Assembly (NCBI GenBank): GCA_964456405.1 | Contig: CAYVZB010000004.1 | Span: 1-62,699 of the forward strand | Source of the DNA: an uncultured Candidatus Saccharibacteria bacterium | GTDB lineage: Bacteria; Patescibacteriota; Minisyncoccia; Phycocordibacterales; DATGWK01 | Length of the DNA: 62,699 nucleotides | Reading direction: 5' to 3' | Shown: piece after piece, positions 1,324 through 3,447 of the stretch | Numbering within the stretch: the stretch's first letter is position 1 | How the letters are laid out: each line of letters begins with the position of its first letter | Translations under genes and position numbers: made by a program | The notes under the pieces: model-generated | Database searches by the model: none | Seen by the model: the letters and a program-made list of their open reading frames with translations, nothing else | What the model was told of the DNA's origin: nothing

Positions 1324-1481
1324 CCCGACCAAGATAGCAACCTCCTCATCAGGAGACGCTCTTGGTCGGGTCGTAGTCGTCGAAAGACGCTATGGGCAGT
1401 TCGAAAGAGCTGTCGTTCTCTCTGGTGGGGAGATTTTTGTTACAAAAATTTTCTCGCTAGAAACTAAACCCGACCAAGACA
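1324..1481 (+). promoter_or_regulatory. Structured 5' leader with mutually exclusive pairings (riboswitch/attenuator-like) upstream of the femAB-like gene
   Basis: The 11-mer CCCGACCAAGA occurs at 1324-1334 and again at 1469-1479 (2 nt before the ATG). Its perfect complement TCTTGGTCGGG lies at 1360-1370. Two GAAA-tetraloop hairpins lie between them (CGTC-GAAA-GACG at 1378-1389; CAGTTC-GAAA-GAGCTG at 1397-1412). Confidence 0.5.
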
Positions 1482-2510
1482 ATGAATAATTTTAAAATCC
1501 GAGAAATCGGAAATGGTGAAAATTTTGATCCTAGTATTTTTTGCGAAAATGTCCCGTTTACACAAGCAAGTTTTTATGGAGATTGGCAAAAAAATTTAGG
1601 CAGAACAGTAAAAAGATTCTTAATATCTAGCGATAAAGAAATTGTCGCTTATTTTCAAATAATTAAATATCCTCTTTTGCTAGGCAAAAGTTATTTCTAT
1701 ATACCTTATGGACCGGTTACAAAAGATTCTTCTGATGATTTTTTTTCCTACCTTAAACAAGAACTAAAAAGAATTTCTAAAATCGAAAATATTGTCTTTG
1801 TTCGTCTTGATTTCACACCAAAAATTTCAAATGATACTTTATTAAAATTTTTTACTAAAGCACCATTTTATACCTATCATTCGGCATATTTTCAACCTCG
1901 GGCTGAGTGGTTTCTTGGTTTGAAAAAAACAGAAAACGAAATACTCATGGAAATGCACGAAAAAACTCGTTACTCAATAAGATTAGCCGATAAAAAAGAA
2001 ATAGTTGCAGAAATTATTACCGACGATTTTGAAAAATATTTTGAGGTTTTTTATGAACTGATGACTGGAACAGCTGAACGAAATGGATTTAAACTCCACA
2101 AAAAGGATTATTACAAAAATATATTTCAAAATCTTTCTAGAACAAACTCTTATTTATCAATAGCAAAGTATGGTGAAAAGATTTTAGCAATTGATATGAT
2201 TATCGTTTTTGGAAAAATTGCAAACTATGTTTTTGGTGGTTCAAGTAATGAAGAAAGAAATCGTATGCCAACTTATTCGGCTCAGTGGAAAGCAATTTGT
2301 TATGCTAAACAACTTAACTGTGATTATTATAATTTTGGTGGTATAGCCACAGGAAATAAGATATATAAAGGTTGGGATGGTCTAACAATTTTTAAAAAGA
2401 AATTTGGTGGTGAAGAAATAACACATTCTGATTTTTTTGATTTAGTAACAAATCGAATCATATATTATATTTATAATTTTAGAAAATATCTAAAAAAAAT
2501 TATTCCATAA
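1482..2510 (+). CDS. FemAB-family peptidoglycan cross-bridge aminoacyltransferase (FemX/Lif/Zif-like)
   Basis: 342 aa. Family-like blocks: FTQASFYGDWQK, YIPYGPV, HEKTRYSIRLADKK, ERNGFKLHKKDYY, YVFGGSSNE..MPTYSAQW, GLTIFKKKFGG. About 30% GC by spot count. Confidence 0.8.
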   Translation: MNNFKIREIGNGENFDPSIFCENVPFTQASFYGDWQKNLGRTVKRFLISSDKEIVAYFQIIKYPLLLGKSYFYIPYGPVTKDSSDDFFSYLKQELKRISKIENIVFVRLDFTPKISNDTLLKFFTKAPFYTYHSAYFQPRAEWFLGLKKTENEILMEMHEKTRYSIRLADKKEIVAEIITDDFEKYFEVFYELMTGTAERNGFKLHKKDYYKNIFQNLSRTNSYLSIAKYGEKILAIDMIIVFGKIANYVFGGSSNEERNRMPTYSAQWKAICYAKQLNCDYYNFGGIATGNKIYKGWDGLTIFKKKFGGEEITHSDFFDLVTNRIIYYIYNFRKYLKKIIP

Positions 2511-2512
2511 AA

Positions 2513-3133
2513 ATGATCAAAATTGGATACACAATAATTATTTTTCTTTTAATTTCTTTAATTGTGGAAATCTTTTTCCTATCTGAAAATAAGCGAGAAA
2601 ATATATCTGACAAGCCAGCAATTAAGAAAGATATAGATTTTATAGCCCCAATAGATAATCCTCTAGTTAGAATTACAAAAAAATCTTTTGGTATTTTTGT
2701 GTCACCCCAAAATTCACCCATTACGCCAGAAAAATTTACTGGATATCATACGGGGGTTGATTTTGAAACTTTTCCAGAGGAACAAAATATAGATGTCCCA
2801 ATTGTGGCGGTTTGTACTGGTAAAATTCTAGAAAAAAGACAAGCAAATGGTTATGGTGGAATGGTAGTACAATCATGTTTTTTGGAAAATAATCCAATTA
2901 CTATTATTTATGGTCATATAAAATTATCAAGTATAAAAATATTACAAGGTGAAATTTTAACATCGGGTAATTTTTTGGGGGTTCTCGGTAATGGTTACAG
3001 CACAGAAACTGATGGCGAGAGAAAACACTTGCACCTTGGTATTCATAAAGGCAAAAATATTGATGTTCGTGGTTATGTGCAAATAGAAAATGATTTAAAT
3101 AATTGGATTAATATATCAACTTATTTAAAATAA
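2513..3133 (+). CDS. Membrane-anchored/secreted M23 (LytM/lysostaphin-type) zinc endopeptidase
   Basis: 206 aa. N-terminal hydrophobic anchor, HTGVDF (HxxxD) and HLHLGIH (HxH) zinc motifs. ATG is 2 nt after the femAB-like stop. Confidence 0.85.
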   Translation: MIKIGYTIIIFLLISLIVEIFFLSENKRENISDKPAIKKDIDFIAPIDNPLVRITKKSFGIFVSPQNSPITPEKFTGYHTGVDFETFPEEQNIDVPIVAVCTGKILEKRQANGYGGMVVQSCFLENNPITIIYGHIKLSSIKILQGEILTSGNFLGVLGNGYSTETDGERKHLHLGIHKGKNIDVRGYVQIENDLNNWINISTYLK

Positions 3134-3142
3134 TTGCTATTA

Positions 3143-3447
3143 TTCCGCCAGTCCGTTAAAATTTTAGTCAGAAAATAAAAAGTGTCATTCCCCCCAACCC
3201 CCAGCCACTTTTTTATTTTCTGTCCGAATTTCTGAAGCCCCGCCACCAGCCCGAATCCTTGAGGGCAGAACACCAGAAACAAAATTTTCTTTTCCATTTA
3301 AGAGATTCTTTTTCCGCGCGCCAAATCGGAAAATGTAAAGAAAAGTTTGTTTCTGGTGTCCGCCGAGTCCGCGAGGCGGGTGGCGGGGCGTTTAGTCCTT
3401 CATTTTCTTTTGGAAATAAGTTCGAGCAAATGCTATAATAACACCAC
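3143..3447. repeat. IR-R, 305-bp arm of a perfect inverted repeat
   Basis: Exact reverse complement of 920-1224. Confidence 0.95.
3410..3439 (+). promoter_or_regulatory. Outward-facing promoter copy in IR-R (would fire antisense into the trxB-like 3' end)
   Basis: TTGGAA (3410-3415), N18, TATAAT (3434-3439), preceded by TG. Confidence 0.4.

Follow-up and report, generated by a model that had tools for sequence, protein, structure and literature searches.

Lysostaphin of Staphylococcus simulans (lss, with Lif/Epr) and zoocin A of Streptococcus zooepidemicus (zooA, with Zif) are encoded at horizontally mobile loci in which the gene for an M23 enzyme with the full HxxxD / H / HxH motif set adjoins a FemABX-family gene. 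We found the same combination in contig CAYVZB010000004.1 of an uncultured bacterium (assembly GCA_964456405.1, forward strand), whose positions 1 to 62,699 (62,699 nucleotides [nt]) are referred to here as the window. Positions 1482 to 3133 of the window contain two plus-strand genes, one for a predicted FemABX-family aminoacyl-tRNA-dependent peptidyltransferase of 342 amino acids (aa) (1482 to 2510; here called Fem) and one for a predicted M23 zinc metallopeptidase of 206 aa (2513 to 3133; here called M23). A preliminary description had likened this pair to a lysostaphin- or zoocin-type bacteriolysin-immunity module. The likeness holds for gene adjacency, the catalytic set, and mobility. It fails for the targeting domain, which is absent from M23, for the isoelectric point (pI) of M23, which is near neutral, and for Fem, which is FemX-like and belongs to a family coupled to MurE-type ligases.

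These differences can be stated more closely. Lysostaphin has an SH3b domain and zoocin A a TRD as C-terminal targeting domain, and antimicrobial M23 enzymes are basic as a rule (PMC9662197). In the window protein, neither an SH3b nor a TRD was found; the M23 domain ends the protein, no other Pfam domain is present, and the ectodomain has a pI of 6.6. The window genes are co-oriented with Fem first, and 2 nt separate the Fem stop codon from the M23 start codon (TAA-AA-ATG), unlike lss/lif and zooA/zif, which are transcribed separately. Fem is compact and lacks a coiled-coil insert, whereas Lif and Zif are of FemA/B size. Related cassettes at other loci (sister cassettes) include a MurE paralog. 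Finally, secretion and immunity in the window system are putative functions read from the genes.

Two further systems are close to the window pair in other ways. In Streptococcus dysgalactiae, the murein hydrolase ScrM is accompanied by ScrI, a Fem-like transferase that changes the interpeptide bridge (preprint 10.1101/2024.09.27.615381). The pairing of a hydrolase with a Fem-like transferase is shared with the window, but ScrM is a CHAP-SH3b-CCD enzyme whereas the window hydrolase is an M23 without a binding domain, and ScrM/ScrI is competence induced and chromosomal whereas the window pair has no competence link. In Staphylococcus aureus, FemX is a tRNA-dependent branch builder, and the M23 enzymes LytM and LytU cut the resulting cross-bridges for growth and separation, a division of labor like the one that we propose below. 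LytU is a small M23 with an N-terminal membrane anchor, a layout matching that of the window enzyme. The S. aureus genes, however, are unlinked, chromosomal, and not mobile, whereas the window genes form one AT-rich operon on an integrative element.

We propose, at a confidence slightly below even, that the pair is a portable, self-directed module that installs a wall branch together with the matching endopeptidase. Retailoring of the carrier's own wall appears more likely than a secreted weapon with its antidote. The pair would travel as cargo on a small integrative element found in Paceibacteria (Patescibacteria), carried in a bay bounded by identical inverted promoter-plus-hairpin copies beside a recombinase gene, and the cargo would derive from the lineage's chromosomal femX-murE pair and from a family of small M23 endopeptidases with an N-terminal hydrophobic helix. 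Fem would add a branch residue from aminoacyl-tRNA to the third-position diamino acid of a stem peptide that, in sister cassettes, a dedicated MurE paralog would supply. Cross-links would then be formed through the branch, and the cotranslated M23, kept at the producer's membrane or wall, would open these new cross-links for growth and separation. In this way the module would convert the wall chemotype of a recipient, possibly making it resistant to enzymes with which phages, competitors, or hosts target the wall. Expression would be gated by an RNA of the LOOT family, which would either complete its helix P2 or allow the 3' strand of P2 to pair with 11 nt just upstream of the Fem AUG. What we infer in this proposal is which substrates are used, that M23 acts on the wall of its own producer, and what the adaptive benefit is; the identities of the genes, their intact catalytic residues, the architecture of the element, the signs of mobility, the covariation in the leader, and the distribution of the families were seen directly. 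We favor it because M23 has no targeting domain and is not basic, because Fem is not of the FemA/B/Lif type, because the ancestral partner of Fem is a stem-peptide ligase, and because sister operons contain three genes.

Fem, M23, and their usual neighbors

The Pfam model FemAB (PF02388) matched Fem with an E value of 3e-30 (105.7 bits against a cutoff of 24). The best matches in the Protein Data Bank (PDB) were to S. aureus FemX (6snr; 1e-17, or 1e-29 with a profile), and the Fem profile also matched Weissella FemX (1e-13). The F304-K305 dipeptide, invariant in the Fem family, aligned in the profile alignment with F304-K305 of FemX(Wv); K305 of the Weissella enzyme is its catalytic lysine. 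The coiled-coil insert (~70 aa) is absent, as profile positions 233 to 238 skip residues 236-307 of 6snr, and with 342 aa the protein also falls outside the FemA/FemB/Lif/Zif type, for which we looked for an insert of ~60-70 aa in a protein of ~410-430 aa. The predicted architecture of Fem is that of the compact Weissella FemX type, without the insert.

All 357 Fem homologs were from Patescibacteria. Comparison loci, designated by L-numbers, were fetched from other assemblies, metagenomes, and genomes by pattern-based and hence biased sampling, and the locus frequencies given here are to be read in that light. Close Fem homologs in 80 genome loci were AT-richer than their flanks and often stood beside various tRNA genes. 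A functional pairing of Fem with one specific tRNA gene was considered and rejected because the adjoining tRNAs are many and different; insertion sites explain the adjacency better. A Fem homolog directly follows a tRNA gene in many loci (L007, L015, L017, L030), and in two others (L034:4933-6344 and L056:4619-5985) an opposite-strand homolog lies in the middle of a tRNA cluster, between Ala-Pro and Val-Ala, in a manner resembling a single-gene insertion.

Identity of Fem to plasmid-borne Fem genes was only 22-25%. A Staphylococcus plasmid match was rejected as a lysostaphin locus, since its Fem-like gene is an orphan with no M23. On the mobilizable, 8.3-kb S. epidermidis plasmid pSE48_1 (L221, CP066304.1), positions 1827-3062 encode an orphan Fem-like aminoacyltransferase of 411 aa, with no hydrolase gene; it may be a lysostaphin-type resistance gene.

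M23 was matched by Pfam Peptidase_M23 (PF01551) with an E value of 1e-10 (42.2 bits against 28.7). The motifs are complete, consisting of H79-TGV-D83, the catalytic H135 (YGH), and H172-L-H174, and all five residues are invariant across 36 members of the M23 family. The adjacency of a FemAB-family gene and an M23 gene with intact zinc motifs, as initially reported, was thus upheld, and the sequence and structure searches that had been suggested confirmed both family assignments. An AlphaFold model (mean pLDDT 91) places an N-terminal helix at residues 4-23 and, after a disordered linker (24-45), one M23 domain that takes up residues 46-206. The hydrophobic helix bears out part of the earlier claim of a membrane-anchored enzyme; it may be an uncleaved anchor or a cleaved signal peptide. 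Small residues are present at -3 and -1 in the M23 orthologs of L008 and L208 (read by eye), where a cleavage motif is plausible; in the window protein the motif is weak.

The nearest PDB match to M23 by sequence was the M23 domain of phage 2638A (6yj1; 7e-7), and lysostaphin was also among the sequence matches (4e-4). The phage 2638A domain is a D-Ala-Gly endopeptidase (PMC9662197). With the M23 model as query, Foldseek returned 27 PDB M23 matches at an E value of ≤1e-3, among which were LytM (target-normalized TM-score, 0.66), ShyA, Csd1-3, LysTt72, 2638A, and LytU. Assignment of a subtype from structure was rejected, as these matches mix autolysins, DD-endopeptidases, and lysins. The family comprises ~2200 homologs, all of which are small, come from Patescibacteria, and join an N-terminal helix to one M23 domain. 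Relatives of 52-64% identity occur alone in chromosomes, after genes for an ECF sigma factor, an ABC transporter, or a histidine phosphatase. M23 genes of the cassette clade (at least 65% identity) were found only with Fem.

The usual, translationally coupled partner of the Fem family is a MurE-type ligase rather than an M23. Among 60 loci with a Fem of at least 50% identity, a MurE-type ligase (at least 60% identical to the cassette type) adjoined Fem in 26 and an M23 in 4. One complete chromosome of 808 kb has the Fem and MurE genes next to parAB, with an overlap of 4 nt, and that site has no repeat, recombinase, LOOT, or M23. Four loci (L008, L089, L146, and L208) contain Fem-MurE-M23 trios with overlapping genes, and the position of MurE between Fem and M23 in these sister cassettes makes the arrangement resemble a biosynthetic operon. 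The cassette ligase scores above the threshold of the murE model TIGR01085 (353 bits against 257). L008 contains, besides this ligase, another MurE that is 39% identical to it and located 2.5 kb away, outside the repeats. Three elements (L009, L103, and L190) carry Fem and MurE without M23. The 62-kb window contains no second Fem, no MurE, and no further M23.

Two additional observations concern the ligases. Specificity could not be read from the DNPR-equivalent motif, which by eye is DPY in both paralogs and is not informative. Both MurE types of these Paceibacteria (L008:9029-10342 and L008:5253-6563; also in L009, L089, and L208) match murE models only from model position ~70-100 onward; they lack the usual N-terminal UDP-binding domain, in place of which they start with a hydrophobic stretch (MKKLLKKLLP...YHY...). 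It is conceivable that MurEs with such a truncated N terminus act on a membrane-linked precursor.

The Fem-M23 pair is real and not a chance juxtaposition. The identical pair is present in other assemblies (L001, L002, and L005), and an independent pair occurs in L223 and L224 (86% and 70% identity for Fem and M23, respectively), where the genes overlap by 4 nt. In the neighborhood survey that had been suggested, adjacency of Fem and M23 recurs, in L223 and L224 and in the four trios, but it is not the usual arrangement of the family. In a neighbor-joining tree without support values, the cassette-linked Fem genes form a subclade nested in the chromosomal Fem(-MurE) family, and all Fem genes linked to M23, inverted repeat (TIR), recombinase, or LOOT fall in this one terminal subclade. 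The preliminary description had named a housekeeping FemX ancestry, together with an M23 of the inactive EnvC/NlpD type, as evidence that would count against its proposal. The first half was found, in that Fem lies inside a lineage-wide Paceibacteria family that includes the core site beside parAB; the second was not, as M23 is not a degenerate protein of the EnvC/NlpD type.

This protein evidence bears on the alternative that the pair is a mobile bacteriolysin with its immunity gene, which we consider somewhat unlikely. In such a system an exported M23 would cut cross-links lacking the modification in competitors or hosts, and Fem, joined by MurE in sister cassettes, would change the cross-bridge of the producer so as to make it resistant to the enzyme. 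An intact lysostaphin-family M23 beside a FemABX gene on a mobile element speaks for this alternative, and precedents for it are known (PMC9662197; preprint 10.1101/2024.09.27.615381). Several observations favor it and weigh against a self-directed module. The N-terminal segment of M23 could be a cleaved Sec signal, in which case the enzyme could be released; the solved M23 nearest to it in sequence comes from a lytic phage enzyme; and the window cassette has lost MurE and kept Fem and M23, as a toxin-immunity pair would. The restriction of cassette-clade M23 genes to the company of Fem is equally expected of a toxin-immunity pair, and the Fem-only copies, which are common, and the Fem-MurE-only copies could be orphan immunity genes. 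Moreover, the bond that M23 would cut and the wall that it would reach are predictions. On the other side, M23 has no SH3b, TRD, or other targeting domain, and its ectodomain is near neutral where antimicrobial ones are generally basic. The window genes are co-oriented and translationally coupled with Fem first, unlike the separately transcribed lss/lif and zooA/zif, the compact FemX-type Fem belongs to a lineage-wide family coupled to MurE at core chromosomal sites, and relatives of M23 stand alone in chromosomes.

The proposed integrative element and its cargo

The pair lies between the arms of a perfect inverted repeat, TIR-L (920 to 1224) and TIR-R (3143 to 3447), which are complementary at 305 of 305 nt. 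TIR-R begins 9 nt past the M23 stop codon, and its outer end is 38 nt from the stop codon of trxB, which is followed to the right by ftsZ and ftsA. The GC content of the pair is 28.6%, compared with a mean of 43.1% (standard deviation, 2.2; minimum, 37.7) in 1652-nt stretches taken elsewhere in the window, and is thus 6.6 standard deviations under the mean. To the left, on the minus strand, positions 2 to 790 hold 263 codons from the 5' end of a gene for a large serine recombinase; the gene runs off the start of the window, as does the left end of the element, and its transcription points away from the cassette. Its product matched Pfam Resolvase (PF00239; 5e-23) and Recombinase (PF07508; 9e-13), the best NCBIfam match was CcrB, far below the cutoff, and full-length relatives are 518-559 aa long.

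An assembly artifact was considered as the source of the inverted repeats and rejected, as all four junctions occur in assemblies of independent samples (L001, L002, L004, L005, and L217-L220). The inner junctions were confirmed in L002 and L005, and the outer junction between TIR-R and trxB is present in four other assemblies (L217-L220), each of which breaks at or inside the repeat.

The repeat belongs to a widespread element. A 26-28-nt core of the arm was found in at least 120 metagenome stretches and was not found in viral contigs. Aligned copies define a conserved Paceibacteria element of ~250-370 nt that has a promoter-like box at its end, followed by a long GC-rich hairpin, and a sharply bounded outer terminus (TGGTGCTGTAAT...). 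When a consensus fold was mapped onto the alignment, the hairpin was 93% paired over 77 distinct copies, with compensatory changes in 11 of 54 pairs; RNAalifold applied to the raw alignment of 84 copies was uninformative. Each arm contains an outward promoter-like site (TTGGAA-18-TGCTATAAT; 957 to 928 on the minus strand in the left arm) and an inward one (ATGACA-16-TAAAAT; 1179 to 1206 on the plus strand in the left arm). Inverted pairs of the element bracket cargo in the window and in L008, L009, L117, L124, L179, L206, and L208. The two arms are 100% identical over 200-374 nt in the window, L124, L179, L206, and L208, 94% identical in L117, and 94% identical over 130 nt in L008, and the arms of different elements differ from each other. 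No target-site duplication was seen at the termini in the window, L179, L206, or L124.

Cargo between the repeats usually opens with a small XRE-type helix-turn-helix (HTH) gene. Besides Fem, it includes Tsp45I-like and EcoRI-like restriction enzymes, DNA methylases, a P-type ATPase, an S66 LD-carboxypeptidase, an S49 peptidase, a histidine phosphatase, and a phosphoribosyltransferase; a "VanX-like" label for the cargo of L128 was dropped because it had no Pfam support. Complete restriction-modification systems lie between inverted repeats in L117:3846-9127 and L206:284-3202, one with a Tsp45I-like enzyme and a methylase and one with an EcoRI-like enzyme and a methylase, each preceded by a small C-protein-like XRE HTH gene.

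This cargo touches on a further alternative, a wall-based addiction module, in which M23 would attack the carrier's unmodified cross-links, Fem would protect them, and loss of the element or silencing of Fem would lead to lysis by residual M23. Restriction-modification systems are classic addictive modules, and their presence as sister cargo of the same small integrative element fits this alternative, as do the gene order, with Fem preceding M23, and the prospect that a membrane-retained enzyme would reach the producer's own wall. The observations that favor a bacteriolysin apply here equally. Nevertheless, we consider addiction very unlikely. Fem-MurE elements without M23 exist, there is no sign of the differential stability that the two proteins would require, wall turnover would need to be slow enough, and the reading is a purely inferential one.

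The position of the recombinase gene points to integration. A large serine recombinase is the divergent left neighbor in about a tenth to a fifth of element copies, and in all six loci that include the 3' end of the recombinase gene, this end adjoins or runs into a tRNA gene (Tyr, Leu-cag, Ile-gat, Pro-tgg, or Leu-gag) or the tmRNA gene, as is characteristic of small integrative elements. The closest relative of the window recombinase, in L105, is 80% identical, and the 3' end of its gene overlaps the tmRNA gene. In L105:4708-7000, the recombinase gene is followed by a single repeat copy and then, with neither a second arm nor cargo in between, by a convergent chromosomal gene, and this locus may be an "empty" platform or a decayed element. 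L165:1-6195 contains a 1875-nt inverted repeat (99.9% identical) with a recombinase gene at each end pointing inward to two element copies; it represents a large palindromic element or else an artifact of fold-back during assembly.

Cassette DNA 100% identical to that of the window occurs in other surroundings. In L006 the full right arm is followed by sequence absent from the window, and in L003 the upstream flank is different; in L223, an arm 91% identical to that of the window follows the M23 gene and is itself followed by a tRNA gene. Vertical conservation at this position, which the preliminary description had said would speak against its proposal, was not observed; with identical DNA in other flanks (L003 and L006), the pair is not vertically fixed there. 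L004 joins the M23 end of the cassette to the recombinase side, and the L190 cassette is flipped relative to those of L103 and L208. A perfect repeat of 305 nt is longer than the k-mers of the assembler and yields the same short-read graph in either orientation, so these joins are not proof of inversion. Exact-protein look-ups of Fem, M23, and TrxB revealed no empty site, and all assemblies break at the repeat.

Taken together, the repeats, the recombinase, the same repeat around other cargo, and the tRNA or tmRNA adjacency support mobility. The location of the Fem-M23 pair on a mobile element is well supported by these sequence features, and the early suggestion of a mobile cassette is strengthened by the perfect repeats, by the serine recombinase, by the unrelated cargo within the same repeat, and by the presence of related cassettes at different chromosomal sites. 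Inversion or exchange of the cassette is hypothetical.

The mobility data also bear on the plainest alternative, that Fem is the lineage FemX and M23 a routine autolysin, chance neighbors in a variable, repeat-rich region whose repeats are generic intergenic sequences. Both proteins do come from large lineage-wide families with ordinary chromosomal members, and the repeat element is very common in these genomes. We nonetheless judge this explanation improbable, given the low GC content of the pair, the 100% identical DNA with different flanks, and the recurrence of Fem-M23 adjacency with overlapping genes in independent cassettes. The arms are 100% identical within an element (window, L124, L179, L206, and L208) and different between elements, the recombinase and tRNA/tmRNA signature is consistent, and the M23-linked Fem genes all belong to one derived subclade.

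Comparison with known mobile platforms revealed both shared and distinct features. Like the CcrAB recombinases of SCCmec, the window recombinase combines Resolvase and Recombinase domains, and SCCmec is likewise a compact element with varied accessory cargo; however, SCCmec is located at rlmH, whereas the sites of these elements are tRNA or tmRNA genes. In Hin/Gin invertible segments, as here, inverted repeats enclose a segment beside a recombinase gene, but the perfect repeats of 200-374 nt are far longer than hix/gix or att sites. In contrast to integron-like platforms, there is no cassette array and there are no attC-like sites. No target-site duplication was seen, and inversion or exchange is hypothetical.

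We therefore also weighed, as an unlikely but broader possibility, that the locus represents an undescribed Patescibacteria platform, a recombinase with a long-repeat bay at tRNA or tmRNA genes in which cargo is swapped or flipped and a LOOT riboswitch-gated Fem operon is one cargo among others. The recombinase, or homologous recombination, may act at the identical inverted sites in what would be natural recombinase-mediated cassette exchange. Within such a platform, the Fem operon (Fem, optionally joined by MurE and M23) may be a portable peptidoglycan-chemotype operon, and the signal sensed by LOOT may be related to the cell wall or to aminoacyl-tRNA.

The LOOT leader of Fem

The preliminary description had portrayed the pair as a single AT-rich unit with its own structured leader; the composition given above agrees with this, and the leader proved to contain a known RNA family. 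LOOT (Rfam RF03000) matched positions 1281 to 1414 on the plus strand with 64.7 bits against a gathering score of 46.4 (E value, 7e-10) and over the full length of the model (positions 1-121). Rfam types LOOT as a small RNA (sRNA) gene known from metagenomes, and the text of Weinberg et al. 2017 (PMC5737381) gives no genomic context for it. Among the fetched loci, by contrast, LOOT was always a 5' leader of Fem, occurring in the window and in L009, L055, L087, L089, L103, L146, and L208; in these loci it was not found before other cargo of the same element. The idea that LOOT is part of the general repeat element was rejected, as it is missing before non-Fem cargo.

LOOT appears to form the aptamer-like part of the leader, and the interval from 1415 to 1481 (plus strand) a candidate expression platform, predicted from folding and covariation. 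A terminator-like hairpin with a T-run follows LOOT at 1417 to 1441. Strand C (1469 to 1479, CCCGACCAAGA), which ends 2 nt before the Fem ATG, is a copy of strand A (1324 to 1334), the 5' strand of LOOT helix P2. Strand B (1360 to 1370, TCTTGGTCGGG), the 3' strand of P2, can pair with either A or C, and its pairing with C can sequester the start region of Fem. In the full leader, the fold of minimum free energy has B paired with C (z = -7.5), and two conformers lay within 0-0.5 kcal/mol of each other in all seven leaders tested. At two positions, A, B, and C change in concert from one leader type to the other, and only two lineages are available for this comparison: the first type has CCCGACCAAGA, TCTTGGTCGGG, and CCCGACCAAGA as A, B, and C, and the second has CCCAACCACGA, TCGTGGTTGGG, and CCCAACCAC. 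Precise A-to-C deletions are present in L008 and L090-L092.

Because a covarying third strand lies at the start codon, the LOOT leader looks like a cis-acting switch in spite of the sRNA label in Rfam. These features, drawn from few independent covariation events, indicate that the Fem leader has the anatomy of a cis-acting, bistable, riboswitch-like switch. The leader also weighs against the bacteriolysin alternative: a riboswitch-like leader before an immunity gene is not known to have a precedent.

Two loci carry unusual versions of the unit. In L003:1-60, another copy of the element contributes its promoter box (…GCAAATGCTATAATGAGAG), which is joined to the leader at window position 1427, inside the terminator-like hairpin, creating a natural variant in which Fem has no LOOT and a promoter lies directly upstream. 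In L087:8155-11026, on a 553-kb contig, a lone LOOT-Fem unit with no repeats and no MurE lies ~0.8 kb downstream of a HicA toxin gene and of another kind of M23 gene, one that contains LysM. This region, which also contains genes for a type IV secretion system coupling protein and a phage-lysozyme-like protein, resembles a genomic island.

Whichever reading holds, the orphan RNA LOOT gains a cis-regulatory context as a Fem leader and becomes a riboswitch candidate for which ligands to consider readily suggest themselves. Likewise, the compact and abundant element made of a recombinase and 200-374-nt repeats, with its interchangeable cargo, may represent a new scheme of cassette mobilization and is a possible source of new pairs of recombinases and sites. 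If the proposal of a self-directed module is true, ultra-small Patescibacteria would exchange ready-made wall-chemistry kits in which a branch builder is combined with an endopeptidase that matches it and, in some cases, with a stem ligase. Such exchange would bear on how these bacteria evade lysins, phages, and host defenses and on the variability of the poorly known Patescibacteria peptidoglycan.

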